Of a DNA stretch of 64,000 bases, positions 3,115 to 44,587 are shown piece after piece. Numbering within the stretch: position 1 is the stretch's first letter; each line of letters starts with the position of its first letter. A program made the position numbers and the translations under genes. This stretch comes from an uncultured Patescibacteria group bacterium (GTDB taxonomy: Bacteria > Patescibacteriota > Microgenomatia > UBA1400 > PJMF01): positions 150,098-214,097 of the forward strand of contig CAJQIG010000001.1 in NCBI GenBank assembly GCA_905478415.1. Direction: 5' to 3'. The notes under the pieces were generated by a model. The model was given only the letters and a program-made list of their open reading frames with translations. It was not told the DNA's origin and searched no databases.

Positions 3115-3149
3115 GAGGCTCCTTCATTTCGAAGGGGCCTCATTTTTTT
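3115..3149 (+). terminator. Rho-independent terminator after 1637..3088, also abutting the convergent GT2 stop
   Basis: GAGGCTCCTTC-ATTTC-GAAGGGGCCTC gives an 11-bp stem (one G.U) and 5-nt loop, followed by ATTTTTTT. Confidence 0.65.
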
Positions 3150-3924
3150 ACTTCATCACCCGATACGCCCACACAATCAAGGTAGCATGTATCTTATGCA
3201 CAAACCGAATAAAGGGAGATTTCACGTATTTCAGAACCAGTTCATGCTCTTCGGCAAACTGCTTTTCATAGAGGGCTCCCCCTTTAGACTGGCCATGAAT
3301 TCTAAAGAGTGAAAAATGTGAATCAGTTACATGCAATGGAAATTGCTCCATAGCTCGCATCCAGTAGTCAAAGTCCATACAGAAGTGGAGGTCTTCGTTA
3401 AACATACCGACTTTATTTAGCAGCTCACGACGCCAAAAGGTACTGGGTTGGATAATATAGTTGGCAATAGAAAGTCTGGTGCGGGTAGGATCTTTGCGAA
3501 GCCATTTTTTATACTCGGCTACAAAACTTTGAATTTTGTTGCCTTTTTCATCAATAATAAAGTAGTCACCGGTTAGCCACATAGCATCGGAGTGATTGCT
3601 GAAGTACTCTGCCACGGTGTTAAGTGTATTGGGAAGAAAAACATCGTCACTATTAATAAAACAAAGGATGTCGCCAGTGGCTTTTTTAAGACCTTGGTTA
3701 ATTGCATCGGTTTGGCCTTTATCTTTCTTTGAGACCCAAGTAAATTGTGTACCGTACGATTTGAGAATCTTGACGGTATCATCGGTCGATCCCCCATCCA
3801 TGACGATATACTCAAGGTTTGGGTAGTTTTGATTGAGCACACTCTCAATTGTTTCTGTAATGAAGTGACCTTGGTTATAGCTGGGGGTGATAACGGTTAT
3901 TTTAGGAAGTTGCTTTTGTTTCAT
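3148..3924 (-). CDS. glycosyltransferase family 2 (GT-A fold)
   Basis: N-terminus KITVITPSYNQGHFITETIESVLNQNYPNLEYIVMDGGSTDDT plus the DxD-region INSDDVF are the classic GT2 signature. Confidence 0.8.
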   Translation of the reverse strand: MKQKQLPKITVITPSYNQGHFITETIESVLNQNYPNLEYIVMDGGSTDDTVKILKSYGTQFTWVSKKDKGQTDAINQGLKKATGDILCFINSDDVFLPNTLNTVAEYFSNHSDAMWLTGDYFIIDEKGNKIQSFVAEYKKWLRKDPTRTRLSIANYIIQPSTFWRRELLNKVGMFNEDLHFCMDFDYWMRAMEQFPLHVTDSHFSLFRIHGQSKGGALYEKQFAEEHELVLKYVKSPFIRFVHKIHATLIVWAYRVMK

Positions 3925-3949
3925 AGCCTTATTTTACCGTATAAACACA

Positions 3950-3980
3950 AAAAAAACGGCACCTAAAAAATAGATGCCGT
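3950..3980 (-). terminator. putative intrinsic terminator downstream of lipoprotein gene (minus strand)
   Basis: ACGGCA ... TGCCGT 6-bp stem with a large loop. On the minus strand it is followed by a T8 run (complement of aaaaaaaa 3948-3955). The large loop lowers confidence. Confidence 0.35.
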
Positions 3981-4001
3981 ATATAAAAACAATTAATACA
4001 A

Positions 4002-5006: not shown

Positions 5007-5130
5007 TTTTGCCTCCACGAGCTAGATAGAAAATAAAAATTGTTTGTTAAAAAACGATAGTTACTTCTCAAAGAGAAATAACTATATCCTATATTATATC
5101 ATAAGAGGAGTTTAATAGTGTGTAAACGTA

Positions 5131-5159: not shown

Positions 5160-5176
5160 CTTTCTACATTCTTTAC

Positions 5177-6060: not shown

Positions 6061-6801
6061 TTGTATACTCAAGTAAGTATAGAAACGAGGTATATGTCAG
6101 ATCAAACTTTAAAAACACCAGAAGAGCTTAAAGCTGCTGCCGAGTTTCAATTAAAAGCCAACCTTTCTCAAATGTCTCTGGGAGAGATTCGCATGAAACT
6201 TATCCTTGAAGGAGATACATTGCTTGAGGGTACGGGGCTCAATGCTAACGATCTGATTGTGGCGTGTAATGATTTAATAGATGCTATAGCAACTAATACG
6301 ACAGGTTCAAATGATGTTCCCGCGTACATTTTAAATAAAACTGCTCGAGCACAGGTGGTTCCTAGTTTTTTGCGTGCTACCTTTAAAGATGCCATTGCGA
6401 CTGAGATTACAACTCAACATGAAGAAGAAACTAAAAGAAAACTTGCTGAAGTAACAGCTAAAATTGGTACAGTGAAACCAACAGCAGAGAACTTATCAAG
6501 GTTTCGACGGCTTATTACTGAAGGTGTTGCATTAGGAATTATTGATCAAGATACTGCACTAGCTAAAATAAATAAAGCTATTGAAGCTACACTAGCAGTA
6601 ATAGATGTAACAATTAAAGAGATGACTACCATAAACATGCATAAAGACAAGCAACGTTTCTCTCCAGATATTTTGCAACACTATATGTCTAAAAAGTTAG
6701 AGCAACAAGATGATCTACCACCACTCGATTTTTTCGGCGAAGCTCTCTCAGACTATGCTGAAAAGAGTTTGCATGTAAAAAGAAAGAAGCAAGGAAATTA
6801 G
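6061..6801 (+). CDS. hypothetical acidic alpha-helical protein
   Basis: ORF track. Alternative start at MSDQTLK (6094). No motifs recognised. The stop overlaps the convergent GT2 stop at 6798-6801. Confidence 0.5.
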   Translation: MYTQVSIETRYMSDQTLKTPEELKAAAEFQLKANLSQMSLGEIRMKLILEGDTLLEGTGLNANDLIVACNDLIDAIATNTTGSNDVPAYILNKTARAQVVPSFLRATFKDAIATEITTQHEEETKRKLAEVTAKIGTVKPTAENLSRFRRLITEGVALGIIDQDTALAKINKAIEATLAVIDVTIKEMTTINMHKDKQRFSPDILQHYMSKKLEQQDDLPPLDFFGEALSDYAEKSLHVKRKKQGN

Positions 6802-7529
6802 ATTTTCAATAAAATTCCAAACTTCAGGATCACCCACACAGCCCGAAAGGCATCTTTGAGAGCAATCTTTTTGCCTTCTTCGTAGGTGCGACCGTGGTAG
6901 GAAATGCCAACTTCGTACATACGAACTTTTTTATGGGCAATTTTTGCCGTTACCTCTGGCTCAATACCGAATGAATTTTCTGTAATCTCAATTGATTGAA
7001 TCACTTCTCGACGGAACATTTTATAGCCAGTTTCCATATCAGTCAGGTTAATGTTATTAAAAATATTTGAAAGTAAGGTTAAACTCATGTTAGCCAAGTA
7101 GTGCCAAAAGTAGACAACTCGGTGGGCATGAGCTCCCATAAAACGGGATCCATACACGACATCTGCTTTATCGTCTAAGAGTGGTTGTAGTACCAGTGGC
7201 AGATCGTTTGGGTCATACTCTAAGTCTGCATCTTGGATAACCACAAATTTGCCAGTGGCTTGTGCGATCCCATCCCGAAGTGCGGCACCTTTTCCACCAT
7301 TTTTATCTCTAAAGATGAGCGTGGCAATATACTTTTTTTCTAATTTTTTTAGAATCTTTCGAGTTGAGTCCTTAGATCCATCGTCAACAACAATAACTTC
7401 AATCTCACCAAGTTTGGCAGCATGAACAGCTTTAAGTACACGTTCAATTGTTTTTTCTTCGTTGTAAGCAGGAATAACTATACTCAGCAGTGGAGCCTTT
7501 TTACTTTTTGCCATTGGACTTCTTTCCAT
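6798..7529 (-). CDS. GT2 polyprenyl-phosphate sugar synthase (Dpm1/GtrB-like)
   Basis: LLSIVIPAYNEEKTIERVL...EVIVVDDGSKDST...VVIQDADLEYDPNDL... plus a short C-terminal hydrophobic tail. This is the DPM1/GtrB/ArnC subfamily signature. Possible later start at MAKSKK (7514). Confidence 0.8.
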   Translation of the reverse strand: MERSPMAKSKKAPLLSIVIPAYNEEKTIERVLKAVHAAKLGEIEVIVVDDGSKDSTRKILKKLEKKYIATLIFRDKNGGKGAALRDGIAQATGKFVVIQDADLEYDPNDLPLVLQPLLDDKADVVYGSRFMGAHAHRVVYFWHYLANMSLTLLSNIFNNINLTDMETGYKMFRREVIQSIEITENSFGIEPEVTAKIAHKKVRMYEVGISYHGRTYEEGKKIALKDAFRAVWVILKFGILLKI

Positions 7530-7845
7530 TCGTAATTGCTTCTGATCTAATAACTTCTTCTAATTTTTTTTCTAGTGACCTGACTTTAAAGTAGCTCATA
7601 AATACTACCACCGAGAGAATCATAAAGGCAATCACAATCAACAGGTCAAATACTCGAGCGAAGTTTAAAAGTCCCGTAATTCCGAGTAATAAGTTTGGGA
7701 AGAGGGCTACAACGGTGAAAGCCACCCAAATAGATGACCAAGCCCAAACCTCAACTTGGTTTAAGTTTCGTTTTTTACCATGAATAGTCACCACATACAT
7801 CATGAAGAGTGCAAACAAGGCTGAAATTATTTGAAATATTGTCAT
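7501..7845 (-). CDS. small 3-TM membrane protein (accessory to Dpm1-like GT2; GtrA-/DUF2304-like role suspected)
   Basis: ORF track 7501..7863. The ATG at 7845 gives an ATGA overlap with the upstream GT2 stop. Three hydrophobic helices and a basic C-tail. Sandwiched between two Dpm1-like GT2 genes. Confidence 0.55.
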   Translation of the reverse strand: MTIFQIISALFALFMMYVVTIHGKKRNLNQVEVWAWSSIWVAFTVVALFPNLLLGITGLLNFARVFDLLIVIAFMILSVVVFMSYFKVRSLEKKLEEVIRSEAITNGKKSNGKK

Positions 7846-8534
7846 AAGGTTATCCTCCACCATAAAATGTTATGTAAAAAATCGAGCGTGTTCAGTATGG
7901 TCATACCTTTATCGTGATCATGGTAGATGGTATCGATAGTAATAGTAGTAAAGGGGATTCTATACTTTGAAACCCGGCATGCAATCTCCATTTCGACTTG
8001 GTATCCTAGCGCATTCCATCTCAGCTTTTTATACGCTTTTTTATTTAAGGCTTTGTATCCAGATGGGATATCGGGAATAAAAGGACTTTGAAAAAGTACT
8101 TGGACAAGATGGGAAGCAAGTTGATTAAAAAAACGCTTAAACCCTGGCATGTCTCCGCTGAGCCTTCGTGTTCCAAAAACAATCTCTGCCTCTGATGATG
8201 CAAAGGCTTTGACAAAAGACTGTAATTCGGCTGGATTATGTTGATCGTCACTGTCCATCATAATGACAGTATTGGCACCTAGTTCATCAAATGCATAGTC
8301 ACATCCGGTTTTAAGTGCAGCCCCTTTCCCCATATTGACTCGATGACGCAGTACATGAGATATACTTTTTTTTGCTTCAGAGAAGGTAGCATCACTAGAG
8401 CCATCATCAATAAAAATAATGTTTGGTGTATATGCACTCACCTTTTGTAGCACCGAACCGACATATTTTTCCTCGTTAAGACCAGGCATAACGATCCAAA
8501 CATCTCTAGGTAATTTTTTAGTCTTGGTTTTCAT
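7842..8534 (-). CDS. GT2 polyprenyl-phosphate sugar synthase (Dpm1/GtrB-like)
   Basis: VWIVMPGLNEEKYVGSVL...IIFIDDGSSDAT...VIMMDSDDQHNPAEL is the DPM1-like GT2 signature. Confidence 0.8.
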   Translation of the reverse strand: MKTKTKKLPRDVWIVMPGLNEEKYVGSVLQKVSAYTPNIIFIDDGSSDATFSEAKKSISHVLRHRVNMGKGAALKTGCDYAFDELGANTVIMMDSDDQHNPAELQSFVKAFASSEAEIVFGTRRLSGDMPGFKRFFNQLASHLVQVLFQSPFIPDIPSGYKALNKKAYKKLRWNALGYQVEMEIACRVSKYRIPFTTITIDTIYHDHDKGMTILNTLDFLHNILWWRITL

Positions 8535-9459
8535 CCGAATGTTCTTTCCAGTACTGAGTAAAATACTGAACGGTTTCTGTAATACCTTCTTCTAAGCTCA
8601 CCTGTGCTCGCCAACCTAACTGCTTGTGAGCTTTGCCTGCATTTGCATAGAGCATTAATGGATCTCCTGGACGTTCTGGCAAGTGTTTGATTTGAGCCTT
8701 TTTTTGCATGGCTGATTCAATTGCAGCTGCAATTTCCAACACAGTAGATGGTTTTTCGGTGCTCAAATTAAAGTAGTGGTAGGCACCTGGATTTTGCAGA
8801 GCATAGTCAAGAGCTTTGAGGTGTGCATCGACAATGTCAGTCACATGAATATAATCTCGCTGGTGTTCTCCACTGCCATAGACGGTTACCTCTTGGTCGG
8901 TATAGATTTGTTTAATAAACCTTGGCATGGCATGTGATTCTGGCTCGTGGTGTTCCTTTGGACCATACAAATTAAAGTACCGAAGCGCCACTGCGGTAAA
9001 ACCATGAGCTTGTACATAACTAGAGATCAATCCTTCCATGGCAAGTTTTGTCATACCGTAGGGGTTAATAGGAATAGTTCGATCGTCCTCAGTAATAGGA
9101 ATAGTTTGAGGTTCCCCATACACAGCTGCTGATGATGAAAAAAGAAGTATTGTAATGTTATTTTCTCGCATCGCTTCTAGGACTGCAACAGTTCCAGAAA
9201 TATTAGTATCAACAAAAGTTTGAGGAAACTTGACTGATTCACCAGCTTCAATTAAGCCAGCTAAATGTAAGACGGCATCTGCATCCTTGATGACTTCTTT
9301 CATTCTCTGTGCATCTCGAATATCAGCTAAGATAGTTTCAACTTCAACATGCTTGGCTGGACGAATATCAACGTTTAAGACCGTATGACCAGCAGATTCG
9401 AGTGCTGGAATCATGTGACTACCCAAGAATCCCGAACCTCCTGTAACAATTATTTTCAT
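8518..9459 (-). CDS. NAD-dependent nucleotide-sugar epimerase/dehydratase (GalE-like extended SDR)
   Basis: ORF track 8518..9486 (TTG). ATG at 9459 gives MKIIVTGGSGFLGSHMI. YxxxK region: PYGMTKLAMEGL. AAGGAAAG lies 4 nt upstream of the ATG. Confidence 0.75.
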   Translation of the reverse strand: MKIIVTGGSGFLGSHMIPALESAGHTVLNVDIRPAKHVEVETILADIRDAQRMKEVIKDADAVLHLAGLIEAGESVKFPQTFVDTNISGTVAVLEAMRENNITILLFSSSAAVYGEPQTIPITEDDRTIPINPYGMTKLAMEGLISSYVQAHGFTAVALRYFNLYGPKEHHEPESHAMPRFIKQIYTDQEVTVYGSGEHQRDYIHVTDIVDAHLKALDYALQNPGAYHYFNLSTEKPSTVLEIAAAIESAMQKKAQIKHLPERPGDPLMLYANAGKAHKQLGWRAQVSLEEGITETVQYFTQYWKEHSDENQD

Positions 9460-9473
9460 ATCTTTCCTTTCGA

Positions 9474-10691
9474 TTATGCAACCCAATAGCCTTGTATAAA
9501 GAGAACTGTGTTTAATACTAACAAAATTCCGCTAAAAATAAACCAAGTGTATCTAAAGAGTCTATTTTTTTCTGTCCAGTCAGCTAGAACTATAAAAAGT
9601 GGAAAACAAACCAAGATGTATCTTGGCAAACTCGAGAAAGTACCAGTCAAGGTTGGAGCAATAAAGACTAAGAGAGAAAAAATAACGTAACTTAACCTGA
9701 CTTTTGTTGCTGAATATACAAGTAAACCCAATCCTACTGTACCAGCAATAAAATCTTGCAGATACGAATAATACTTGAAATCAAAAGGACGAGCAGTCAC
9801 CAAAATTTTTAAATAACGATATAAAACTTGAGGATACGTTACCACTACTTCCTCTCTAATACCTCCAAACTCCGCTTGAACATGAAAAAAATAGAGGGGA
9901 TCACCAAATTCAGTAGCCAGGTAGTACATATACGTTAAGAGACCTAATGATCCAAGTGCTACGGTTGCTAATGGAAGAGCGTGTTTAGAAATACGTTTTT
10001 GTGCCCATAGGACAAAATAATTTTTTTTCTTAAGTACTAAGTGTTGCATTTTATTCCAAGTATATCCTTCAAAAAGGATCTCAAAAAAAAGTGCTGGGAT
10101 TAAAAAGATACCGACAATTCTAGTAGCACTCGCTAAGGCTACAAAGAGCGCTGTCAGCATGTACTTCTTTTTTTGAGTTGCGATAAATGAAAGTATGACC
10201 ATCAAGAGAAAAAACGATTCTGTGTAAGCGGCACCGAAAAATAAGGAGGTGGGAAAAACTAGCAGGATTATGGTTGCTATGAAAGCTCTCTTCTTAGAGA
10301 AAGATTCTTTTACAAAATAGTACCAAGTAATAAGTAAGGCTGCAAAGGAAAGGTTGGAGAGTGCTAAGTTCGCCAATAAAATATTATCGATACTCTTATT
10401 GAGTAACGATGAAAAATAGGGATAAATAGGAAAGAAGGCTTGCATGTAACTTGCTGAACCATAGCCATCTCTAGTAATTGTAATGTAGTGGACACCATCA
10501 AAGTTTGCCCATGAATACAACCATTGTGGGAGTCCAAATGTATCAAGCAAACCAATAGAGTAAGGAAACGAAGGATCATAGGCCAAAAAAGTATTTGCAA
10601 AATACCCAACAAGAAAAAGTATGCTTCGCCACACCAAGAATATGCCCATAAGTGGGAAAATAAAATGAATCTTTTTACGTACTGCTACCAT
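9474..10691 (-). CDS. polytopic membrane glycosyltransferase, PIG-V/Mannosyl_trans2-like (GT-C fold)
   Basis: About 10 TM helices. The first loop carries W-ANFDGVHYITITRDGYGSASYMQAFFPIYPYF, resembling the W-D-x-E-H-[FY]-L-x-I-A-x-x-G-Y...AFFP motif of PIG-V-type mannosyltransferases (motif recalled from memory). Confidence 0.5.
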   Translation of the reverse strand: MVAVRKKIHFIFPLMGIFLVWRSILFLVGYFANTFLAYDPSFPYSIGLLDTFGLPQWLYSWANFDGVHYITITRDGYGSASYMQAFFPIYPYFSSLLNKSIDNILLANLALSNLSFAALLITWYYFVKESFSKKRAFIATIILLVFPTSLFFGAAYTESFFLLMVILSFIATQKKKYMLTALFVALASATRIVGIFLIPALFFEILFEGYTWNKMQHLVLKKKNYFVLWAQKRISKHALPLATVALGSLGLLTYMYYLATEFGDPLYFFHVQAEFGGIREEVVVTYPQVLYRYLKILVTARPFDFKYYSYLQDFIAGTVGLGLLVYSATKVRLSYVIFSLLVFIAPTLTGTFSSLPRYILVCFPLFIVLADWTEKNRLFRYTWFIFSGILLVLNTVLFIQGYWVA

Positions 10692-12548: not shown

Positions 12549-12611
12549 AGGGACATTGTATCAAAAGAAGTAGATTTGTTTTTTAGCACTTTTTAGGATA
12601 GATTGAACCAT

Positions 12612-14495: not shown

Positions 14496-14514
14496 AGAAT
14501 CTGTATACTTGGAG

Positions 14515-16224: not shown

Positions 16225-16237
16225 GTCAGTGATTCTT

Positions 16238-33562: not shown

Positions 33563-33563
33563 G

Positions 33564-36378: not shown

Positions 36379-36400
36379 AAAATGTCTTACAATCAGTATA

Positions 36401-37306: not shown

Positions 37307-38878
37307 TTACCTTAGGCTTTTCAGCTCTACCATTAGTTTATCACGACCAACCAGTACTAGGGCGAGAATGTAGGAAGAACCAGTGATAACTCCGCCTAGT
37401 AAGAGATGACCAAATCCCAATCCCCAATAGTCTCTTCCTAAGAAGCCCACAAAAGCCATAACTATAGCTGCCACTGCCTGACGCCAAACTGACTCTATAA
37501 AGTTGATCGGTACTATCTTTCGAACATAATACACCGGTAAAGCCGAAGTGAAGGAAATTGCTAATGCAGCCAGAGCTACTCCATTATACCCATAGAAAAC
37601 TATAAGAACTGGAGTCAAAACCCAAGTCAAAATTGTCCAGAAAATCATCAATTTTAAAGTTGTGTTTATCTGTCCAACAGCGTTGAGCGTATTGGTGAGT
37701 GGCGTTGAAACTGCACTCCAACCTATACTGAGAGTAAAGAAAATAAGACTGAATGCCGCAGGTTGCCACTTTTGATACTCTGGGATAATTGTCAAAGCTG
37801 GAATTATAAAGGTCACCATACCGATTAAAATTGGAAAAATGGCAGTGGTAATAAAGAAAAGAGATTTTTCAATTGCTTTTCTCAAGGCAACTTTATGGCC
37901 TTGTAAACGAGAGAATGCCGGGAACGTAACCGACATAACATTTTGAACAGTTAAGCTATAAGGATACATGGACCATTGCTTAGCCCAAGTGATATAACCA
38001 AATTCCTTTGATGGCAAAAATGCTGCCAAGAAAAAGTAAAAGAGCTGGTCTTTAATTCGTGCCAAGAAATCATTAATCTGGAATTTAGCACCGTAACCAA
38101 ACAATCCTTTTAGGGCTGGCACGTGAATCATAATACCAAATGACCAAGGTTGTAGCACTGACATACTGATAGCCCCAACCACTGAACGAAAGATAATAGC
38201 GTAGGCATATGAAATCAATCCATAGCCACGAATAACCATAAAAATAAGTGTGCCTTGAAACACAATTTGTTCTAGGATCTGTGGCAAGACAAGTTTTGAA
38301 AAATCTAACTTTCTTTCCAAAATAACAGATGGGATTGTCTTTAAGGTTGCAAGCGGAAATGAGAGACCCATTGCCAGGAGGATCCAAATACCGGCATTAC
38401 CAGCCTTCATTTGAAATGCTGCAGTAGTTGCTACAAGAATAGTTATACCAAAAATGAGCCAACTCAAAAGTTGTTGTACAGTAAATGCAGTCCGGTACTC
38501 ACGTTTGGTCGGAGTAGTCTTCTTTTGAATCAAAGCTGCTGCTAACCCAATATCTGAAAAGAAAGTTAAGAGCCCAACAACTTGAATCACTAGTCCATAA
38601 ATACCATAATCTTCAGGGGAAAGATAAAAACCTAGTAAAGAGGTTGCAACTAATCCAATGACCTGCAAAAGAACTGTTCTTAAAAAGTATGAAGCGGCCC
38701 CATTGACAGAACGTTTTTTAATATCTTGGATAGCAACTTCCTGTGCATGAGTAATTTTTTCCTCTTGTTCCGGAAACGAGCCAACTGATTTAAGACTCGG
38801 CTTTTGTGGAAATATCGGAGTACCAAGCTTTGAAACAAGATCTCTATATTTAGCTTTTTGAAAAAGGCGAAACAACAT
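37307..38878 (-). CDS. wzx: Wzx-type lipid-linked oligosaccharide flippase (MOP/PST family) with ~55 aa hydrophilic N-terminal extension
   Basis: About 12-14 TM helices. N-terminal region ASYFLRTVLLQVIGLVATSLLGFYLSPEDYGIYGLVIQVVGLLTFFSDIGLAAALIQKK matches the conserved Wzx/PST N-terminal core. Start codon shares one base with the upstream stop. Confidence 0.75.
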   Translation of the reverse strand: MLFRLFQKAKYRDLVSKLGTPIFPQKPSLKSVGSFPEQEEKITHAQEVAIQDIKKRSVNGAASYFLRTVLLQVIGLVATSLLGFYLSPEDYGIYGLVIQVVGLLTFFSDIGLAAALIQKKTTPTKREYRTAFTVQQLLSWLIFGITILVATTAAFQMKAGNAGIWILLAMGLSFPLATLKTIPSVILERKLDFSKLVLPQILEQIVFQGTLIFMVIRGYGLISYAYAIIFRSVVGAISMSVLQPWSFGIMIHVPALKGLFGYGAKFQINDFLARIKDQLFYFFLAAFLPSKEFGYITWAKQWSMYPYSLTVQNVMSVTFPAFSRLQGHKVALRKAIEKSLFFITTAIFPILIGMVTFIIPALTIIPEYQKWQPAAFSLIFFTLSIGWSAVSTPLTNTLNAVGQINTTLKLMIFWTILTWVLTPVLIVFYGYNGVALAALAISFTSALPVYYVRKIVPINFIESVWRQAVAAIVMAFVGFLGRDYWGLGFGHLLLGGVITGSSYILALVLVGRDKLMVELKSLR

Positions 38879-40620
38879 TAAGATCTTTCTTTCTTGATTT
38901 TTTGTTCTTGGCTTATATACAAGTAAAGAACGACTACTAAAAGCAAACTCACAGCCGAAATCGTATCACTAATCTTTCGAACCTGGGTAGACTGAAATAC
39001 TACTTTTACTATTTTTCCTCCTGCAGGAAGAGCTGCTTCAAGTAACCCTGTTGGAGATATTCTTTTTTCAACCTGCACTCCATCTACAAAAACCTGCCAT
39101 CCTGGAAAGTCGGCAATCGAGAAGAGTACTTGTCTGTCAGTTTCGCTAGCTACAAATTGATATATTTTCTTGTGACCAGCACTCTCAATAACCTCATATT
39201 CGCACTCATCCTGTAAGCACTCCAGTTGTTGTTGGGGCGGCTGGATACCATCCAAAATCATTGCACTGGGTATGTAATCAGGTAGCGTCTTACTCATTTC
39301 ACTTGCTACCCGAGCTGGATTATCATAGTAATACTTTTCAGGTGCATCCAAGTAGGATTTTGGCTTAAAAATACTTGCAGTACTGAGTAACAGAAAGAAC
39401 ATCCCCACAATGTAGAAACGGGCCTTCCTTCCTTTCAAGAAGAAAAGAGGTACTCCAACTGAGCTTGCCAAAAATACTGAAGTAATGGACAAGTATCTCC
39501 AAGGAAACTGAATGTAAGACATAAAAGGAAGAGCTCTCCAAACTAAGATTGAACGCTCAAGCGAAAGAAACAATCCTAAACCAATAAGTAAAAATAGAAT
39601 TCCTAGTATGGCGATCTTATTAAATAGCGCGATTTTTCTTTTCTTATACAAAGATGTTGAAACAGCTGAGTTTCGAATTACTTGAACCACTAACAGTAGA
39701 GATCCAACCACACTCACGAGTTGACCAGTCCCTAAGTAAAATGAAATTGGATCGTTCGGCCCCCATTCTGATCCACCATATCCCCAGAAAGCGGTAAAAA
39801 ATTGACGAATATACAAAAAATGCAGTGAAAAATCAAAATATCCAGAAAGAATAGTGGCATCTACTTGTGTAAAATCTTTTTCAAGTAATGCTGGGAAAAT
39901 ATAAAACGCTGCCAAACCAACTGCAAGCAAAACTGATGAAATTACTCCACTAAGTTCTTTACCTAGTTCTTGCAATCTTATCTTCTGTAAATAATAGCCC
40001 TGGCCAAGTTGAAATAAATAAAACAAGACAAAAAATGGAGCTGAAATTAAAGCCGTTAGGTTATGACTCAGCAATAAGATAACCAAACCAAAAGTAATAC
40101 CTCCCCAACCTTTCCAAAAATGAGTTCTGATTTTGATCAGACCCCAAAGAACAATTGGTATCGCCATCATTCCCCAAGATTCACTCAAAGCGCCTCTGAC
40201 AAAAAGATTTAATGCTCTGTATGGTGCCAACGTTAAGGCAGCTGCTACTAACACACCTGCTGCTTTACTCTTAAATAGTTCTTTGGCAAAAAAGTAGGCC
40301 GCAAGTAAAGTACCGACGCTACTGAGTAAAAACAATGCTTTGACTGCAGTGATAAGTGGAAATCCCACTTGATAAAGAAGTGACCCAATAAAGTACGGTA
40401 ACGGCGCATAAAACTCAAAAAGAGGCATACCATATCCATAACCAAAATTTTGACTCCATCTAACCGGGAATTGCCCTTCTTGGAGTGCACTGGTCATCTC
40501 GGTAATTCTAACGCCATGAATGAAATCATGAACATCAAACATACCAGGTTTGAGTAGTGCCCAACTAGAAGCTACTATAACTAATAGAAGACTTAGGCTT
40601 ACCAATAGCTTTCTTTTCAT
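38878..40620 (-). CDS. uncharacterised GT-C-like polytopic membrane protein, GQFPVRW family (paralog 3 of 3)
   Basis: N-terminal loop VHDFIHGVRITEMTSALQEGQFPVRWSQNFGYGYGMPLFEFYAPLPYFIGSL. C-terminal ADFPGWQVFVDGVQVEKR...LPAGGKIVKVVF plus a terminal TM. Confidence 0.6.
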   Translation of the reverse strand: MKRKLLVSLSLLLVIVASSWALLKPGMFDVHDFIHGVRITEMTSALQEGQFPVRWSQNFGYGYGMPLFEFYAPLPYFIGSLLYQVGFPLITAVKALFLLSSVGTLLAAYFFAKELFKSKAAGVLVAAALTLAPYRALNLFVRGALSESWGMMAIPIVLWGLIKIRTHFWKGWGGITFGLVILLLSHNLTALISAPFFVLFYLFQLGQGYYLQKIRLQELGKELSGVISSVLLAVGLAAFYIFPALLEKDFTQVDATILSGYFDFSLHFLYIRQFFTAFWGYGGSEWGPNDPISFYLGTGQLVSVVGSLLLVVQVIRNSAVSTSLYKKRKIALFNKIAILGILFLLIGLGLFLSLERSILVWRALPFMSYIQFPWRYLSITSVFLASSVGVPLFFLKGRKARFYIVGMFFLLLSTASIFKPKSYLDAPEKYYYDNPARVASEMSKTLPDYIPSAMILDGIQPPQQQLECLQDECEYEVIESAGHKKIYQFVASETDRQVLFSIADFPGWQVFVDGVQVEKRISPTGLLEAALPAGGKIVKVVFQSTQVRKISDTISAVSLLLVVVLYLYISQEQKIKKERS

Positions 40621-40713: not shown

Positions 40714-41838
40714 ATGACAGACACTCAACTACCTGACCATCAACCAAAAACTTATTCTGAGTCGGCAGAACATCAGATTCGTGTTTTAACTGGTCCACAG
40801 CTCTTTCTAAAAGCAACCCTCCTTTCGGCGGGCATGGCAGCAGTCATGCTAGTAATCACCTTCATTGGCGTACTTATTTTCTGGTCAAACCAACTTACTG
40901 TCTTTCTTGATACCGCCAATATCTCTTTTTCAGAATTACGACAAACAGTTACTGTTGGACTCGAAACTCAACCTAAACAAACTGGTGACAGTACCACGGT
41001 ACTTCTCTTAGGCTTGGATTCACTAGAAACTAGACCAGGTAGTCCTCAACTGACAGACACAATGATAGTGGTGTCACTCAACTATAAAACAGCAAAGGTC
41101 ACTACAATTTCATTGCCTAGAGACATCTGGAGTACGGCGTACCAAACAAAAATCAATGCCCTCTATCACTACGGTCAAGAACGATATCCCACCAATCCAA
41201 GTCAATTCCCAACTGAAGTCATTTCTGAGATGACTGGACTACCCATCGAGTATACTGTTGTCATCACCATGAAACAGGTAGCAGAGATTATTGATGTGCT
41301 CGGTGGTATTGATGTTGATATCCCTGCAGCTTTCACTGACACTCAATTTCCTCGCCCTGATGTAGACGTGAGTGTCGTCCACGACCCAGATCTTCTCTAC
41401 CAAACAGTGACCTTTGAAGCTGGACAACAGTCACTAGATAGCACCAGAGCACTACAGTACATTAGAAGTAGAAAAAGTGGCGATACAGAAGGTGATGATC
41501 TAGCTCGAGGAAAGAGACAACAGCTCATCATTGAATCCTTAGTTGCACAACTTCAATCAAAAGAGACCCTTACCAACCCTCAACTTTTAGGCACACTCTA
41601 TACCTATTATCAGAATACGTTTAGTCAATTTGTTCCACTTAATGAAAGCATTGGTCTTCTCACTCAAGTCTTTCCTCAAAGGAATGTTTTAGAGCTCAAA
41701 ACAGCAGCGCTCCCCATTGCCCCCGATGATCCTAACGGCGTACTCATAAATCCACCTATTTCTAAGCACTCAGTTTGGGTGTATGAAGTCGTCGATCAAG
41801 ATAGTTTTAGAAATTATGTGAAATCGCTGGTAGAATAA
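40714..41838 (+). CDS. LytR-CpsA-Psr (LCP) family cell-wall glycopolymer ligase
   Basis: N-terminal TM, then TTVLLLGLDSLETRPGSPQLTDTMIVVSLN...ISLPRDIW...INALY. Core LCP-domain motifs. Confidence 0.8.
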   Translation: MTDTQLPDHQPKTYSESAEHQIRVLTGPQLFLKATLLSAGMAAVMLVITFIGVLIFWSNQLTVFLDTANISFSELRQTVTVGLETQPKQTGDSTTVLLLGLDSLETRPGSPQLTDTMIVVSLNYKTAKVTTISLPRDIWSTAYQTKINALYHYGQERYPTNPSQFPTEVISEMTGLPIEYTVVITMKQVAEIIDVLGGIDVDIPAAFTDTQFPRPDVDVSVVHDPDLLYQTVTFEAGQQSLDSTRALQYIRSRKSGDTEGDDLARGKRQQLIIESLVAQLQSKETLTNPQLLGTLYTYYQNTFSQFVPLNESIGLLTQVFPQRNVLELKTAALPIAPDDPNGVLINPPISKHSVWVYEVVDQDSFRNYVKSLVE

Positions 41839-42058: not shown

Positions 42059-42071
42059 AAGGATATCCACC

Positions 42072-43106
42072 ATGAGTACATCAAATACAAAAAAAACACT
42101 CCTTGTTACTGGCGGGGCAGGTTTTATTGGAAGTAATTTTATTTTGTACTGGATGAAACACCACCCAGAAGATAAAATTATCAACCTAGACGCACTTACT
42201 TACGCTGGCAATCTTGAAAATTTACGATCAATCCAAGACTCTAAAAACTATATTTTTGTTGAAGGTAATATAGTGGACAGAGATTTAGTCGAACGCATTG
42301 TTGCAGATGTTGATATGATCGTTCACTTTGCAGCTGAGTCACATGTTGATCGCTCAATTTTGGAACCAGATGCTTTTGTACAGACAAATATTGTAGGAAC
42401 TCAGGTACTGCTCGACCTAGCTGTCAAACACAAAGTCAAACATTTCCACCATATTTCAACTGACGAAGTGTTTGGATCCTTAGAACTTGGTAAAGATACA
42501 CAGTTTTCAGAAACAACTCCCTATGATCCTCGCAGTCCTTACTCTGCAAGTAAGGCTTCATCAGACCATCTTGTCAGAGCCTATGGCGAAACCTACGGTT
42601 TACAGTACACAATTACCAACTGTTCAAATAACTATGGTGAGTATCAATTTCCAGAAAAACTTATTCCCTTAGCAATTACTAATATTCTCGATAATAAAGC
42701 TGTACCTGTATACGGAGATGGCCTGCAAGTCAGAGATTGGCTCTACGTCCAAGATCACTGCAGCGCTATTGAAAAAGTCCTCGAGAGTGGTAGTTCTCAA
42801 AAAACCTATGTTGTGGGTGGCTTAACTGAAGACATTCCAAATATTGAAGTCGTTAAAACTATCCTAAAAATCATGGGGAAATCAGAACATATGTTAGAAC
42901 ATATTACTGACCGGGCTGGTCATGATGTTCGTTACAGTGTTGATTGGAGTCACATTAAAAAGGATTTAGGTTGGGAGCCTTCTGTGAGCTTTGAGGTAGG
43001 CATAGAACAAACAATTACGTGGTATCTTGCAAATGAGTCCTGGTGGAGACCACTCCTCTCGGACAATCAAGATTATTTCAAAAAAAACTATCAAGACAGA
43101 ACATAG
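42072..43106 (+). CDS. rfbB: dTDP-glucose 4,6-dehydratase
   Basis: LVTGGAGFIGSNF, HFAAESHVDRSI, FHHISTDEVFG, PYSASKASSDHLVRAY, TNCSNNYGEYQFPEKLIPLAI. Nearly motif-for-motif with RmlB. Confidence 0.9.
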   Translation: MSTSNTKKTLLVTGGAGFIGSNFILYWMKHHPEDKIINLDALTYAGNLENLRSIQDSKNYIFVEGNIVDRDLVERIVADVDMIVHFAAESHVDRSILEPDAFVQTNIVGTQVLLDLAVKHKVKHFHHISTDEVFGSLELGKDTQFSETTPYDPRSPYSASKASSDHLVRAYGETYGLQYTITNCSNNYGEYQFPEKLIPLAITNILDNKAVPVYGDGLQVRDWLYVQDHCSAIEKVLESGSSQKTYVVGGLTEDIPNIEVVKTILKIMGKSEHMLEHITDRAGHDVRYSVDWSHIKKDLGWEPSVSFEVGIEQTITWYLANESWWRPLLSDNQDYFKKNYQDRT

Positions 43107-43119
43107 AGAGAAGTTGCGT

Positions 43120-43716
43120 ATGTACACACCCAAAGAATCACTGCAGGTTGGAGAAAGTATCTATAGTTCTAAGCTTGAGGGGTTGTTTTTCCTTGAAAGT
43201 AAGAAGTTTGATGATGAGCGTGGTTACTATGCCGAACTGGCTCGTATTCCAGAGCTAGACGCACTCAGAGGTGTTGAGTTTTGTACAAAACAAGTCAATA
43301 TCGCTCGATCTAGTCAAAATGTTGCTCGTGGTATTCACTCAGAAAATTGGAATAAGTTAGTGACAGTTACCAATGGCGTAGCTTTTTGTGCTCTAGTGGA
43401 TTTAAGACCTACTTCTAAAACATTTGGAGTATTTGAAACAATCCTATTAGGAGTTGGAAAGGATGCTCTCCATGGGAGCGTTTTCATTCCCAGTGGAATT
43501 GGTAATTCTCTCTGTGTAGTTGAAGGTCCTGTTGACTATCTCTACTATGTAGACAAACTGTACAAAGATCGTGATCCTAGTGGAGACAAAGCACTGTCAC
43601 TGTTTGATCCTGACCTCGCTATCTCTTGGCCAATAGCGAAAGAAGAGATGATACTTTCACAAAGAGATCAAAACACTGTCACTTTAAAAGAATTATTTCC
43701 GGAAAAATATGCGTAA
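43120..43716 (+). CDS. rfbC: dTDP-4-dehydrorhamnose 3,5-epimerase (RmlC-like cupin)
   Basis: ORF track 43027..43716 overlaps rmlB. The ATG at 43120 sits just after the rmlB stop. ...QVNIARSSQNVARGIHSE...VDLRPTSKTFG...FIPSGIGNSLCVVEGPVDYLYY...DPDLAISWP fit the RmlC fold motifs. Confidence 0.75.
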   Translation: MYTPKESLQVGESIYSSKLEGLFFLESKKFDDERGYYAELARIPELDALRGVEFCTKQVNIARSSQNVARGIHSENWNKLVTVTNGVAFCALVDLRPTSKTFGVFETILLGVGKDALHGSVFIPSGIGNSLCVVEGPVDYLYYVDKLYKDRDPSGDKALSLFDPDLAISWPIAKEEMILSQRDQNTVTLKELFPEKYA

Positions 43717-44587
43717 CTCACTACTCGCTACTGGTATTAATGGTCTTGTTGGTTCAAAATTTAAAAATGATTTTTCTGATTCGTACCAATTTGATTCTTT
43801 AGATATTTCAGACCCTCAAAATCGCGTTGATATCACTGATATAAACCAAGTTATGGCAGCTTTTGAGGCCTCAAAAGCAAGGTATGTCTTACACCTAGCG
43901 GCCTACACCGATGTGACTGGAGCGTGGAATCAGCGGGGTGACAAGAATGGCCTTGCCTATAAAGTTAATGTTACCGGTACTCAAAACATTGTTTCCGCTT
44001 GCAGAGAACACAATGTCCATCTCATTCATATTTCAACCGCCTATGTTTTTGATGGCACAAAAGAAACCCTCTATACTGAAAATGACACAGTACACCCCAT
44101 TGAGTGGTACGGAGAAACAAAAGCTCTAGCTGAAGAAGTTGTTACTAACAGCGCGATCGACTGGACGATTCTTAGAATTGATCAGCCATTTAGAAGCGAC
44201 TCTTTTCCAAGACAAGATATCGCTCATCGAATTATAAGCGGACTAGAAACTGCTACGCTCTATCCTCAATTCACGAACCACTTCTTTGGACCAACTTTTA
44301 TCGATGATTTTGCGAAAGTCATAGATTGGGTGATCAGAACTAAGACTACTGGTCTGTTTAATGCTTCCAGTGGAGAAAAATGGAGTGATTTTGCATTTGC
44401 GCAAGCAGTAGCCAAACAAATTGGTAGTACAACGTCTATAAAGCCTGGAAATTTAGATGAGTATTTGAAAACATTGGATCGCCCCTATCAAAAAAATACA
44501 GCTATGGACACCTCTAAACTACAGTCAAAACTTGATTTTTCACTTCGGGATATTGCCTCTGCCCTCAGTGAAGTAACCAGTAACTAA
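43709..44587 (+). CDS. rfbD: dTDP-4-dehydrorhamnose reductase
   Basis: LLATGINGLVGS, HLAAYTDVTGAWNQ, IHISTAYVFDG, YGETKALAEE match the RmlD_sub_bind family. 8-nt overlap with rfbC. Confidence 0.75.
   Translation: MRNSLLATGINGLVGSKFKNDFSDSYQFDSLDISDPQNRVDITDINQVMAAFEASKARYVLHLAAYTDVTGAWNQRGDKNGLAYKVNVTGTQNIVSACREHNVHLIHISTAYVFDGTKETLYTENDTVHPIEWYGETKALAEEVVTNSAIDWTILRIDQPFRSDSFPRQDIAHRIISGLETATLYPQFTNHFFGPTFIDDFAKVIDWVIRTKTTGLFNASSGEKWSDFAFAQAVAKQIGSTTSIKPGNLDEYLKTLDRPYQKNTAMDTSKLQSKLDFSLRDIASALSEVTSN

Follow-up and report, generated by a model that had tools for sequence, protein, structure and literature searches.

A conserved, GT-C-rich gene cluster of a Microgenomates-group bacterium and its probable role in extracytoplasmic surface-glycan assembly

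Introduction

Described systems that elaborate glycans across membranes include the four-component system GacI/GacJ/GacK/GacL, which combines a GT2 glycosyltransferase, a DUF2304 protein, a Wzx-type flippase and a GT-C glycosyltransferase, and the Lactococcus lactis PSP pathway with its GT-A/DUF2304 initiation, cytoplasmic glycosyltransferases, Wzx flippase and GT-C polymerase/transferases (PMC8035078, PMC9574508, bioRxiv 10.1101/180810). GacJ is a DUF2304 member whose homologue Rv3632 stimulates PpgS (bioRxiv 10.1101/180810), and the Pfam family PMT_2 is also the family of GacL, GtlB and CsdD (PMC8035078).

Results

The window, i.e. the whole analyzed stretch of 64,000 nucleotides, contains at 3148-44587 a run of glycosylation genes that is present as an earlier note had delimited it and lies far above chance expectation. 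Several counts had to be revised on the basis of Pfam and NCBIfam profile results, to which all bit scores below refer: there are 35 ORFs instead of about 32, eight GT2 genes (3148, 6798, 7842, 11736, 32705, 34640, 35467, 36401) instead of about ten, and five ORFs without a family (4002, 5177, 6061, 16229, 23729) instead of two. The two GT4 genes (10675, 33564; Glycos_transf_1) were counted correctly, and the Wzx (MOP) flippase, LCP, rmlBCD and GalE-like epimerase indeed match their families, each being present as a single copy, as is a DUF2304 protein. A 584-kb ENA marine metagenome scaffold carries identical proteins, and homologues are recorded under the names Microgenomates, Woesebacteria, Levybacteria, Pacebacteria and Beckwithbacteria.

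Both Dpm1-like synthases that had been postulated were found, and their best solved relative is the Dol-P-Man synthase 5mlz of Pyrococcus. The first candidate polyprenyl-phosphate sugar synthase is a Dpm1/GacI-like GT2 without own transmembrane (TM) segment (6798..7529, minus strand; Glycos_transf_2 133.9 bits), which over its whole catalytic domain matches P. furiosus 5mlz best in the PDB (E 2.6e-21), followed by ArnC and GtrB; its best NCBIfam matches, AglJ and Dol-P-hexose transferase, all stay below cut-off. The second candidate is Dpm1/PpgS-like (7842..8534, minus strand; Glycos_transf_2 79.8 bits), with PpgS as best NCBIfam match (108 bits, below cut-off) and again 5mlz in the PDB (E 6.6e-12). 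Between the two lies the gene of the DUF2304 protein, a small membrane protein of the GacJ/WpsB/Rv3632 activator type (7501..7863, minus strand; DUF2304 57.1 bits, 3 TM segments). No GtrA-type flippase for polyprenyl-phosphate monosaccharides was found in this analysis.

Other cytoplasmic glycosyltransferases on the minus strand are a soluble GT2 without TM segment (3148..3924; Glycos_transf_2 109.6 bits) and a GT4/GT2 pair (10675..11739, Glycos_transf_1 90.4 bits; 11736..12548, Glycos_transf_2 77.5 bits); in the related locus L048, this GT2 is again accompanied by the GT4 and the PIG-V-like gene. A conserved block on the same strand comprises GT2 32705..33622 (Glycos_transf_2 68.2 bits; orthologue in 36 of 51 related loci), GT4 33564..34658 (Glycos_transf_1 68.6 bits; 44/51), GT2 34640..35470 (Glycos_transf_2 56.2 bits; 45/51), GT2 35467..36378 (Glyco_tranf_2_3 68 bits; 44/51) and GT2 36401..37303 (Glycos_transf_2 69.1 bits; 45/51). 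The fourth of these is weakly rhamnosyltransferase/GlfT1-like, as its best NCBIfam match, a rhamnosyltransferase subfamily, reaches 62.9 bits and thus stays far below cut-off. The block is followed by the Wzx-type MOP flippase (37307..38878, minus strand; Polysacc_synt_3 151.5 bits, NCBIfam MOP flippase 87.8 bits; 42/51).

On the plus strand, an LCP (LytR-CpsA-Psr) glycopolymer-to-peptidoglycan transferase with one N-terminal TM segment (40714..41838; Pfam LytR_cpsA_psr 107.2 bits; NCBIfam LCP domain 95.9 bits, cut-off 62.3) precedes rmlB (dTDP-glucose 4,6-dehydratase; 42072..43106; TIGR01181 480.8 bits, cut-off 365), rmlC (dTDP-4-dehydrorhamnose 3,5-epimerase; 43027..43716; Pfam dTDP_sugar_isom 109.4 bits, NCBIfam rmlC 94.3 bits) and rmlD (dTDP-4-dehydrorhamnose reductase; 43709..44587; Pfam RmlD_sub_bind 166 bits, NCBIfam rmlD 144 bits). 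The NCBIfam scores of rmlC and rmlD are below cut-off but nevertheless the best matches, and the Pfam match of rmlC begins at residue 49; the listed TTG probably lies upstream of its true start. The GalE-like NAD-dependent sugar epimerase (SDR) is encoded on the minus strand (8518..9486; Pfam Epimerase 209 bits; NCBIfam galE 225.8 bits, cut-off 262). To the left of the span of the earlier note, there is an Fcl-like SDR, a candidate GDP-L-fucose synthase (417..1448, minus strand; Pfam Epimerase 191 bits), whose best NCBIfam match is GDP-L-fucose synthase with 301 bits, below the cut-off of 500.

Fourteen ORFs encode polytopic membrane proteins with about 5-12 predicted TM segments each. At least 14 GT-C-like proteins had been claimed, and 13 of them, with about 7-12 predicted TM segments, are supported as GT-C-type glycosyltransferases and not as transporters or O-antigen polymerases, whereas the remaining one has no GT-C signal. 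The latter is a 302-residue membrane protein of an unnamed family, M302 (16229..17137, plus strand), which was rejected as a fourteenth GT-C; its model is confident and shows neither GT-C similarity nor a structural neighbor. The 13 GT-C genes take up 52% of the span 3148-44587 (3.1 genes per 10 kb). Four proteins score above Pfam cut-offs, namely 17134 and 31152 (PMT_2), 24334 (PTPS_related) and 12603 (GT87), and an Asp/Glu directly past TM1 is conserved in every GT-C family. A structure was predicted for one of the 13, termed X645, and the other groups rest on paralogy and profile relatedness.

Group A is ArnT/PMT_2-like and contains the paralogues 14452..16224 (plus strand, 590 aa; PMT_2 18.7 bits), 17134..18768 (plus strand, 544 aa; PMT_2 29.2 bits, cut-off 26.1) and 27926..29548 (minus strand, 540 aa; PMT_2 20.7 bits), with an E-value of 7e-27 between the first and the last; in the 14452 family, D60-E61 past TM1 is conserved in 90-94%. 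The divergent member 20455..22236 (minus strand, 593 aa; DUF6056 22.6 bits, weak) finds 17134 (6e-10) and 14452 (4e-7) by BLASTP and has a YDE motif past TM1. Group B, all on the minus strand, comprises 22223..23704 (493 aa; PMT_2 18.3 bits), 29559..31103 (514 aa; no Pfam match) and 31152..32708 (518 aa; PMT_2 26.9 bits, cut-off 26.1), the latter being a paralogue of 22223 (4.8e-17) and 29559 (1e-16), which are themselves related (2.7e-9). Group C is YfhO/PTPS_related-like and comprises 18728..20458 (plus strand, 576 aa; about 11 TM segments and a C-terminal anchor), 24334..25998 (plus strand, 554 aa; PTPS_related 44.3 bits, cut-off 26.4) and 38878..40620 (minus strand, 580 aa; faint YfhO and PTPS_related matches), where 24334 is a paralogue of 18728 (E 2.8e-25) and 38878 (5.7e-37), which are likewise paralogous. 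Records from Woesebacteria and Microgenomates label homologues of 24334 as YfhO family or PTPS-related. In profile-profile comparisons, the 22223 family profile links group B to group A with 99.7%, and the clean 24334 profile links group C to A with 96.1% and to B with 97.4%. A single-TM protein of 188 residues without matched family (23729..24295, minus strand) adjoins the 24334 orthologue in relatives, with orthologues at the same position in L005, L006, L007 and L018.

Three GT-Cs are singletons. The GT87-family protein 12603..14495 (plus strand, 630 aa, about 10 TM segments) scores 32.2 bits for GT87 (cut-off 25) and 22.6 bits for ALG3; mycobacterial GT87 enzymes act on PIM, LM and LAM. 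The PIG-V-like protein 9474..10691 (minus strand, 405 aa, about 8 TM segments; PMT_2 19.9 bits, below cut-off) has a family of 33 members, 10 of which match Mannosyl_trans2 (PIG-V; best E 8.6e-10) and 5 PMT_2; with a link of 87.8% to group C (hhalign) and D65 invariant within WANFDGVHY, its sequence suggests a GT-C, the least supported of the 13. The third, X645 (25987..27924, minus strand, 645 aa), represents a Microgenomates-wide family without Pfam model; it is GT-C according to its predicted fold and is linked to the group A profile with 95.2%. X645 accompanies Wzx and the cytoplasmic glycosyltransferase block throughout the lineage and directly adjoins Wzx in 49 of 82 related loci (the 80 loci of the scan below plus L005 and L006). 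By this association, it is the best candidate for an en-bloc transferase or polymerase of the Wzx-flipped glycan.

A scan of GTDB species genomes returned 80 loci, and presence was counted in the 51 loci of at least 15 kb. Four core glycosyltransferases occur in 44-45 of these each, group C in 47, group B in 43, Wzx in 42 (with the 38878 orthologue preceding it in the conserved core) and the Dpm-like GT2 in 40. The median GT-C count of these loci is 6 in about 20 kb, i.e. 3.0 per 10 kb, and their further unassigned polytopic ORFs are also PMT_2 or YfhO members. Core and GT-C density are thus conserved lineage-wide, and the genes co-occur in relatives instead of being dispersed. LCP and rml adjoin the core in the window, L006, L014 and L025, and both lie within 10 kb of it in L010; as only 4 of the 51 loci have them within 10 kb, wall attachment is supported for closer relatives only.

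Wzy, WaaL, a chain-length regulator and an ABC transporter are absent among the scanned ORFs, which were 100 aa or longer and extended to position 59684, as had been noted. For the ABC transporter this holds inside the window: the source scaffold has a second MOP flippase and a pair of ABC-2 exporter genes 6-8 kb to the left of the window, whose edge therefore cuts the cluster. Also immediately to the left are two methyltransferases, a GT4 and another PMT_2-like polytopic protein. Neither the window nor the 9.6 kb leftward yielded an initiating phosphoglycosyltransferase (WecA/TagO or WbaP type), nor did the unassigned ORFs that recur in relatives; since the donors of LCP enzymes are pyrophosphate-linked, this counts against attachment of the product to the wall.

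Discussion

We consider it highly probable that the cluster encodes a GT-C-based extracytoplasmic surface-glycan system of a known multi-component type. GT-C status, Dpm1-like synthases and conservation all agree with the earlier reading as multi-step extracytoplasmic glycan elaboration. The following pathway, which we infer by homology and which as a whole seems somewhat more plausible than not, would start at the cytoplasmic face, where the two soluble Dpm1/GacI/PpgS-like GT2 enzymes with their GacJ-like DUF2304 partner would load polyprenyl phosphate with sugars. From dTDP-rhamnose (rmlBCD), an epimerized UDP-hexose (GalE-like) and possibly GDP-fucose (Fcl-like), the four GT2 and one GT4 at 32705-37303, the GT2/GT4 pair at 10675-12548 and the GT2 at 3148 would build a lipid-linked oligosaccharide that the Wzx-type flippase could bring to the outer face. 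There, the 13 GT-Cs would act: X645 might transfer or polymerize the flipped unit, like the GT-Cs WpsJ and WpsI in L. lactis, and groups A, B and C as well as the GT87- and PIG-V-like enzymes may add more residues or branches from polyprenyl-phosphate sugars. The LCP enzyme probably attaches the finished polymer to peptidoglycan, and the ABC-2 transporter just beyond the window may export a backbone. The most likely product would thus be a wall-linked heteropolysaccharide that is elaborated outside the membrane; its specific linkage to peptidoglycan is a tentative assignment with not quite even chances. The host is a tiny uncultured Microgenomates-group bacterium (CPR/Patescibacteria) of marine origin, and, as part of this slightly favored explanation, the span of more than 41 kb would be its main surface-glycan locus.

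What alternatives exist for such a wall-linked glycan? General protein glycosylation is unlikely, yet it is the best of them: X645 would act like an oligosaccharyltransferase, with S-layer proteins, pilins and Ser/Thr-rich proteins of the surface receiving the Wzx-flipped oligosaccharide en bloc, and other GT-Cs would add sugars either to the protein itself or to the glycan already bound to it. With a flippase, a GT-C and a block of cytoplasmic glycosyltransferases, the cluster is arranged much like pgl and agl loci, the second-best NCBIfam match of Wzx is an "O-glycosylation flippase", most of the distant relatives have no LCP near the core, and 14 relatives have a small DUF11 surface-repeat protein next to the cluster. 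However, the WWDxG motif is absent from X645 and all other GT-Cs of the cluster, and oligosaccharyltransferases match X645 no better than ALG12, ArnT, Pmt and AftA do, so that the fold alone does not pick out the former. The PMT-like protein O-glycosylation that had been considered earlier also has no specific support, as the PMT domain stays below threshold (17134: 21.2 bits, cut-off 22.7), PMT_2 is shared with GacL, GtlB and CsdD, and no MIR or PMT_4TMC domains were found in the cluster. Moreover, the host and closer relatives have LCP and rmlBCD next to the core, and no target protein was identified.

Cluster genes might also serve several independent glycans instead of one product. In its strict form, this would mean co-located three- or four-component decoration systems and unrelated glycan pathways without a single assembly line, where every GT-C contributes a single sugar, each to another polymer or position, and clustering merely reflects a shared regulatory or recombination hotspot; we regard this as still less likely than protein glycosylation. 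At least 7 transcription blocks on both strands, the variation of GT-C complement and order among relatives that retain the core, and the presence of two flippases and an ABC exporter on the scaffold would fit, as would the several independent GT-A/GT-C pairs in Firmicutes (PMC8035078). In Firmicutes, however, a GT-C usually adjoins its own GT-A (PMC8035078), whereas here two donor synthases face 13 GT-Cs, most of which must therefore share donors. The 11 genes between 40620 and 25987 moreover run in one direction with overlapping or almost touching ends, and the high GT-C density is kept lineage-wide.

Least probable is a membrane-anchored lipoglycan (lipomannan/LAM or glycosylated-LTA type), in which GT87-, PIG-V- and PMT_2-like enzymes would lengthen a lipid-anchored mannan-like chain with polyprenyl-phosphate mannose from the Dpm1-like synthases, as the GT87 score of 12603, the PIG-V matches of the 9474 family, the relation of both synthases to Dol-P-Man synthase and the interpretation of Saccharibacteria genes as PIM/LM/LAM-type (PMC6031116) are countered by the absence of detectable PimA/PimB-type or LtaS-type genes in the window, by rmlBCD, LCP ligase, Wzx and a five-glycosyltransferase block for which there would be no need, and by GT87 (17/51 loci) and PIG-V-like genes (2/51) being among the least conserved of the cluster.

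Returning to the favored wall-linked glycan, its architecture does not stand apart from all described pathways, as had been proposed. The cluster shares all four component types with GacI/GacJ/GacK/GacL, its architecture matches the L. lactis PSP pathway, and its many GT-Cs together with rml and LCP recall mycobacterial arabinogalactan. Every proposed step has published precedent (PMC8035078, PMC9574508). On balance, and with the modest preference given to the explanation as a whole, the cluster would represent an expanded "multi-component transmembrane glycosylation" system, i.e. an enlarged version of the lactococcal, streptococcal and mycobacterial pathways and not a new type of machine.

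Gene content and extent of the locus

The cluster between 3148 and 44587 of the window holds 35 ORFs by our count, and its G+C content stays at 38-42% over most of its length. In Pfam and NCBIfam scans, eight ORFs were assigned to GT2 (named by their start coordinates: 3148, 6798, 7842, 11736, 32705, 34640, 35467 and 36401) and two to GT4 (10675, 33564), and the same scans identified a GalE-like epimerase (8518-9486), rmlC, rmlD and rmlB, the latter with 481 bits and thus above cut-off. Further components are a DUF2304 protein with three transmembrane (TM) segments (7501-7863; Pfam, 57 bits), a MOP/Wzx flippase (37307-38878; Polysacc_synt_3, 151 bits) and an LCP ligase (40714-41838), which exceeds both curated cut-offs (LytR_cpsA_psr, 107 bits; NCBIfam LCP domain, 95.9 bits at a cut-off of 62.3) and has a single predicted TM segment at residues 37-55 as N-terminal membrane anchor. 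Fourteen ORFs of the cluster encode polytopic membrane proteins, and five belong to no family (4002, 5177, 6061, 16229, 23729). An Fcl-like SDR (417-1448) lies to the left of the span that had been drawn by the earlier note, and as trmD, gltX, ybeY and dnaX follow on the right, 44587 can be taken as the right boundary. A scan for promoters and terminators from 25 to 44.9 kb gave counts that did not exceed the shuffled expectation, and an Rfam scan returned nothing but one tRNA (58475-58545).

Several single features deserve mention. The listed TTG start of rmlC (43027-43716, plus strand) overlaps rmlB by 80 nt and the Pfam match begins at residue 49; the real start looks like the in-frame Met at residue 32 ('MYTPKES'). 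Three family-less ORFs that interrupt the cluster (4002-5018, 5177-5860, 6061-6801) have a local G+C content of 44%, against about 38% around them, and homologues in none of 82 related loci; a lipoprotein-like signal (LTAC) is seen in the first of them, and the stretch 4002-6801 may have been inserted in this strain only. An ORF of 488 aa (1622-3088, plus strand), placed between the first GT2 and the Fcl-like gene, has no family match; its product combines three TM helices at the N-terminus with a large domain that looks extracytoplasmic. Beyond the tRNA, from 58475 to 64000, the G+C content drops to 35-37% and the ORFs are short and without family where scanned (58635-59684); perhaps a small piece of DNA was integrated here, or the region evolves fast.

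Proteins identical to those of the window are encoded on a 584-kb marine metagenome scaffold (ENA ERZ23498645, SOLA22-1_SAMEA7060512_METAG-scaffold_3), which extends the view to the left. On L087, the stretch of this scaffold that reaches beyond the window (window coordinate = 11449 minus L087 coordinate), positions 11449-21032 correspond to 0-9.6 kb left of window position 1, and the glycan genes continue there. An ABC_tran protein (78 bits) and an ABC2_membrane protein (72 bits) are encoded at L087 17482-19003, some 6-7.6 kb left of window position 1, beside a SAM methyltransferase, an FkbM/RfbT-like methyltransferase, a GT4 and a second MOP flippase, and a further polytopic protein of at least 674 aa shows a weak PMT_2 match. 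The locus therefore exceeds 50 kb and includes an ABC-2 exporter; the earlier note, which had recognized no ABC transporter, was right for the window itself and not for the scaffold.

The GT-C membrane glycosyltransferases

At least 14 GT-C enzymes had been claimed from the sequence alone. Thirteen are now supported as such, while the fourteenth, the 302-aa protein M302, has no profile similarity to any GT-C family. The 13 genes occupy 52% of the 41.4 kb, and a simple hydropathy scan gives 7-12 TM segments for each product, where GT-C enzymes have 8-13 TM helices. In an all-against-all comparison, ten polytopic proteins fall into three paralogue groups, namely the ArnT/PMT_2-like group A (14452, 17134, 27926, 20455), the PMT_2-like group B (22223, 29559, 31152) and the YfhO/PTPS_related-like group C (18728, 24334, 38878). 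Curated Pfam cut-offs were passed by 17134 and 31152 for PMT_2, by 24334 for PTPS_related (44 bits) and by the singleton 12603 for GT87. Profile-profile comparisons link the groups with 99.7% for A with B and, using the clean alignment A2 for group C, 96.1% for C with A and 97.4% for C with B. The two values for group C come from comparisons repeated with the clean alignments A1, A2 and A4; an early comparison of A1 with A2 had reached 39% only, and a value of 99.7% for B with C, obtained with the first family alignments from locus ORFs, is unreliable, since the alignment of group C had swollen to 998 match columns.

In the alignment of each GT-C family, an Asp or Glu that immediately follows the first TM helix is conserved, in what would be the first extracytoplasmic loop: D60-E61 in group A (90-94%), D47 and D51 in group B (91%), H45-D46 in group C (85-98%), H135-D136 in the 645-aa protein X645 (88-100%), and an invariant D65 in the PIG-V-like family of 9474. 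An acidic residue at this place is known as the modified DxD of GT-C enzymes (PMC8035078, PMC9574508). The weakest of the 13 cases is the singleton 9474: ten of the 33 members of its family match Pfam PIG-V (Mannosyl_trans2) and five match PMT_2, and its profile aligns with that of group C at 87.8%. Profiles of X645, group C and the PIG-V-like family gave nothing useful against PDB sequences. True PMT enzymes (GT39) were considered and rejected, since the best PMT score (21.2 bits, 17134) stays below the cut-off of 22.7 and no ORF matches MIR or PMT_4TMC.

X645 (25987-27924, minus strand) has no Pfam, NCBIfam or PDB sequence match. Its AlphaFold model, built from an alignment of 35 sequences, is confident (pLDDT 94.7) and all-helical with about 14 membrane-length helices, and it resembles the solved GT-C enzymes ArnT, PMT, STT3 and AftA. 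A Wzy or WaaL identity is rejected on the grounds of this structure, and no WaaL, Wzy or SEDS-type protein is among the 60 best structural matches listed. An oligosaccharyltransferase of the STT3/PglB/AglB type is likewise rejected, as the WWDxG motif is absent and there is no STT3 match. On an ENA contig of 4.9 kb, the protein P0129 (531 aa) combines a Glycos_transf_2 domain with a match of 100% identity to 53% of X645; either the assembly is chimeric here, or in a variant strain a part of X645 has been fused with a GT2.

The AF2 model of M302 (16229-17137, plus strand) is also confident (pLDDT 93.3), and this protein has no structural neighbour in the PDB. Its family comprises at least 653 proteins without Pfam domain and has an invariant polar cluster (D108, E112, EEISWGQR at 157-164, N178, Q180, E182, H186, N187, E269, E272); the orthologue of M302 directly follows Wzx in two related loci (L006, L025). 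Wzy and WaaL are rejected for M302, which resembles neither. M302 may be an unrecognized membrane enzyme of glycan assembly. The family-less 188-aa protein with one N-terminal TM helix at 23729-24295 (minus strand) is kept next to the orthologue of its adjoining group C enzyme in four loci (L005, L006, L007, L018) and could assist that enzyme as an accessory protein or by binding the acceptor.

Conservation in related genomes

Homologues of group C and X645 are found in records named Microgenomates, Woesebacteria, Levybacteria, Pacebacteria and Beckwithbacteria. Two orthologous loci keep the gene order of the window, with LCP, rml, Wzx, GT-Cs and GT2/GT4 genes, at protein identities of 61% and 48%. 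When the X645 alignment was scanned against one genome per GTDB species, 80 loci were obtained, and almost all titles that carry information point to Microgenomates-group candidate phyla. This CPR-type cluster is also present in dozens of TPA MAG records titled Pseudomonadales or Gammaproteobacteria (e.g. L009, L011, L013, L015, L017, L018) and in single records titled TM6, Clostridia, Nevskiaceae and Bacteroidetes; titles of this kind probably do not give the true taxonomy.

For gene counts, the window proteins were searched against six-frame ORFs of the loci, 51 of which span at least 15 kb. Among these 51, a group C enzyme is present in 47, each of four core glycosyltransferases in 44-45, group B in 43, Wzx in 42, a Dpm-like GT2 in 40, a fifth core GT2 in 36 and group A in 31. 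X645 immediately adjoins Wzx in 49 of 82 related loci (the 80 loci of the scan plus L005 and L006). Distant relatives have the order group C, Wzx, X645, GT2, GT2, GT2, GT4, GT2; its counterpart in the window is a single minus-strand run from 40620 to 25987, with three additional GT-Cs ahead of X645. The large unassigned ORFs of the relatives turned out to be more GT-Cs of PMT_2, YfhO or GT87-like type, and if they are included, the relatives have a median of 6 GT-Cs per approximately 20 kb (3.0 per 10 kb), against 3.1 per 10 kb in the window. This similar density marks a lineage trait rather than an oddity of one genome. The genes thus are not dispersed in relatives, which would have counted against the reading of the earlier note. 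LCP and rml genes are near the core in only four of the 51 loci.

In distant relatives with loci of the Shapiro-, Woese- and Amesbacteria type, the cluster has recurring neighbours, as at L046 145-783, L023 109-807 and L044 975-2123. A DUF11 surface-repeat protein of small size is found in 14 loci, a SAM methyltransferase in 9 and an M23 peptidase in 8, and the DUF11 protein could be a glycosylation target. In two of the closest relatives, a secreted or anchored protein of 742-758 aa without assigned family lies between the GT2 block and the GT-Cs (L005 11694-13922, L008 2731-5007); it has no counterpart in the window.

How the glycan may be assembled

GT2 proteins 6798 and 7842 are small and lack a TM helix. 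Their best solved relative, over the entire catalytic domain, is the Pyrococcus Dol-P-Man synthase, followed by ArnC and GtrB, and their best NCBIfam matches (AglJ, Dol-P-hexose transferase, PpgS) all stay below cut-off. The DUF2304 gene is placed between the two. Together, the two synthases and the DUF2304 partner are an indirect hint that the GT-Cs use sugars linked to polyprenyl phosphate. In Streptococcus pyogenes, the DUF2304 protein GacJ activates GacI, and its Mycobacterium tuberculosis homologue Rv3632 stimulates PpgS (bioRxiv 10.1101/180810).

Starting from the family and fold assignments and the synteny, we would propose the following donors, order of steps, role of X645 and acceptor. 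The Dpm-like GT2/DUF2304 module would supply polyprenyl-phosphate sugars, and the conserved block of five glycosyltransferases would build a lipid-linked oligosaccharide, which Wzx would flip. X645, possibly together with the core group C enzyme, would then transfer or polymerize the flipped oligosaccharide, the remaining GT-Cs would decorate the product with polyprenyl-phosphate sugars as donors, and the LCP enzyme would attach the polymer to the wall. A wall polymer as product is suggested by LCP, rmlBCD and the nearby ABC-2 exporter. The weak point of wall attachment is that LCP enzymes need a pyrophosphate-linked donor, and neither an initiating phosphoglycosyltransferase (WbaP/Bac_transf, WecA/Glycos_transf_4) nor a chain-length regulator turned up among the scanned window ORFs, in the 9.6 kb that adjoin on the left or among unassigned ORFs that recur next to the core in relatives; the initiating gene could lie elsewhere in the genome. 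Further weak points are that no GtrA-type flippase was found and that LCP and rml are near the core in four of 51 loci only.

What alternatives exist for such a joint pathway? The GT-Cs could belong to independent decoration systems that merely are co-located, which we consider rather unlikely, as this is hard to square with two donor synthases for 13 GT-Cs and with an 11-gene co-directional run. A lipomannan-like lipoglycan as the product would match the GT87, PIG-V and Dpm1 flavour of the cluster and is nonetheless unlikely, as rml, LCP and the Wzx/GT block do not fit.

The joint pathway can be taken one step further. No window ORF has a Pfam or NCBIfam match to a Wzy polymerase (Wzy_C, EpsG, O-antigen polymerase). 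We tentatively raise the possibility that Microgenomates-group CPR bacteria make their main surface glycan with GT-Cs in place of both Wzy and WaaL/OST. The Dpm1-like GT2 with DUF2304, instead of a phosphoglycosyltransferase, would then start the lipid-linked oligosaccharide, Wzx would flip it, the X645 family would polymerize or ligate the flipped unit, and the dozen other GT-Cs would remodel it into a wall polymer of arabinogalactan scale; M302, with its invariant EEISWGQR and no structural neighbour, would represent a new enzymatic step. If this is true, extracytoplasmic glycan elaboration is among the largest functional investments of an approximately 1-Mb genome and probably helps to determine how episymbionts attach to their hosts.

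Much of bacterial diversity belongs to the CPR/Patescibacteria, which have very small genomes; the cultivated ones live attached to other microbes, and to our knowledge their envelope chemistry is almost unknown. Here, more than 41 kb of a 584-kb scaffold, or more than 50 kb counting the part outside the window, are devoted to surface-glycan assembly with 13 or more GT-Cs. Levy-, Pace-, Beckwith-, Shapiro-, Woese-, Davies- and Amesbacteria all show this same density of GT-Cs, so that possession of a complex glycan that is elaborated externally probably is a core trait of the lineage. A rhamnose-containing wall polysaccharide in Microgenomates enrichments and polyprenyl-phosphate sugars as donors are now testable, and the Wzx-associated X645 and the membrane protein M302 are protein families worth following.

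Comparison with known systems

In the full-text literature covered, which leaves out most subscription journals, we found tangential papers only and no prior description of this cluster, including in CPR bacteria. We know of only one well-studied bacterial system in which comparably many GT-Cs build wall polysaccharide outside the membrane, the assembly of arabinogalactan and LM/LAM in mycobacteria and corynebacteria, with AftA-D, EmbA-C, MptA-C, PimE, Ppm1, PpgS/Rv3632, WbbL, RmlA-D and Lcp1. The cluster shares with it rhamnose genes, cytoplasmic GT2 enzymes, an LCP ligase, a PpgS-like GT2 paired with DUF2304 and, as proposed, donors of the polyprenyl-phosphate sugar type. In contrast to that system, genes for decaprenyl-phospho-arabinose synthesis, WecA and GlfT2 were not found in the cluster, and its GT-Cs are not of the Emb/Aft families by sequence, with no matches to PDB sequences. 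The mycobacterial genes are dispersed through a 4.4-Mb genome, whereas those of the cluster form one packed locus.

The kind of system as such is already known, as for every type of component a counterpart has been described from the multi-component transmembrane glycosylation systems of Gram-positive bacteria (PMC8035078). Of the Firmicute systems for teichoic-acid glycosylation, YfhO/CsbB/GtcA corresponds to group C, which is likewise YfhO/PTPS_related-like, and a PMT_2-like character is common to groups A and B and to GtlB of GtlA/GtlB, CsdD and YkcB (PMC8035078, PMC5836110). Different from these systems, neither a GtrA/GtcA-type flippase nor teichoic-acid synthesis genes were found in the cluster, and its GT-Cs lack one-to-one GT-A partners. 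All four component types of the S. pyogenes GacI/GacJ/GacK/GacL system (PMC8035078; bioRxiv 10.1101/180810) are present, with the soluble GT2s 6798 and 7842, the DUF2304 protein (7501-7863), the Wzx-type flippase (37307-38878), which is flanked by GT-C genes, and the PMT_2-type GT-Cs. Different from the Gac system, the synthase/DUF2304 module is about 29 kb away from Wzx, two synthases would serve many GT-Cs, and a GacH-like glycerol-phosphate transferase was not seen.

The closest analogue of the whole pathway is the Rha-CWPS of Lactococcus lactis, in which WpsA/WpsB, homologues of GacI/GacJ, form C55-P-GlcNAc, WpsC-F extend it in the cytoplasm, the Wzx-type WpsG flips the product, the GT-C WpsI polymerizes PSP, the GT-C WpsJ moves PSP onto an ABC-exported rhamnan, and LcpA links the polymer to peptidoglycan (PMC9574508). 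Shared with the cluster are rml genes, a cytoplasmic GT block, a Wzx-family flippase, an LCP ligase and the pair of a GT-A enzyme and a small 3-TM activator, here GT2 and DUF2304. The likeness extends to an ABC-2 exporter on the same scaffold and, as proposed, to extra GT-C decoration enzymes and to GT-Cs that transfer or polymerize the flipped lipid-linked glycan instead of Wzy, and the L. lactis model explains the absence of both Wzy and an initiating phosphoglycosyltransferase. Differences are that a WpsH/Wzz-like co-polymerase was not recognized in the cluster, that its host is a CPR bacterium with a genome of probably about 1 Mb, and that the cluster has 13 GT-C genes as compared with a handful in L. 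lactis, the two being likened by component type and not by Wps protein sequence. Moreover, the GT-C family adjoining Wzx in the cluster has no Pfam model and occurs mostly in Microgenomates-named records. What is new in comparison with these systems is the scale, the conservation in a CPR lineage of very small genomes, the Wzx-associated GT-C family without a family model, and the M302 family.
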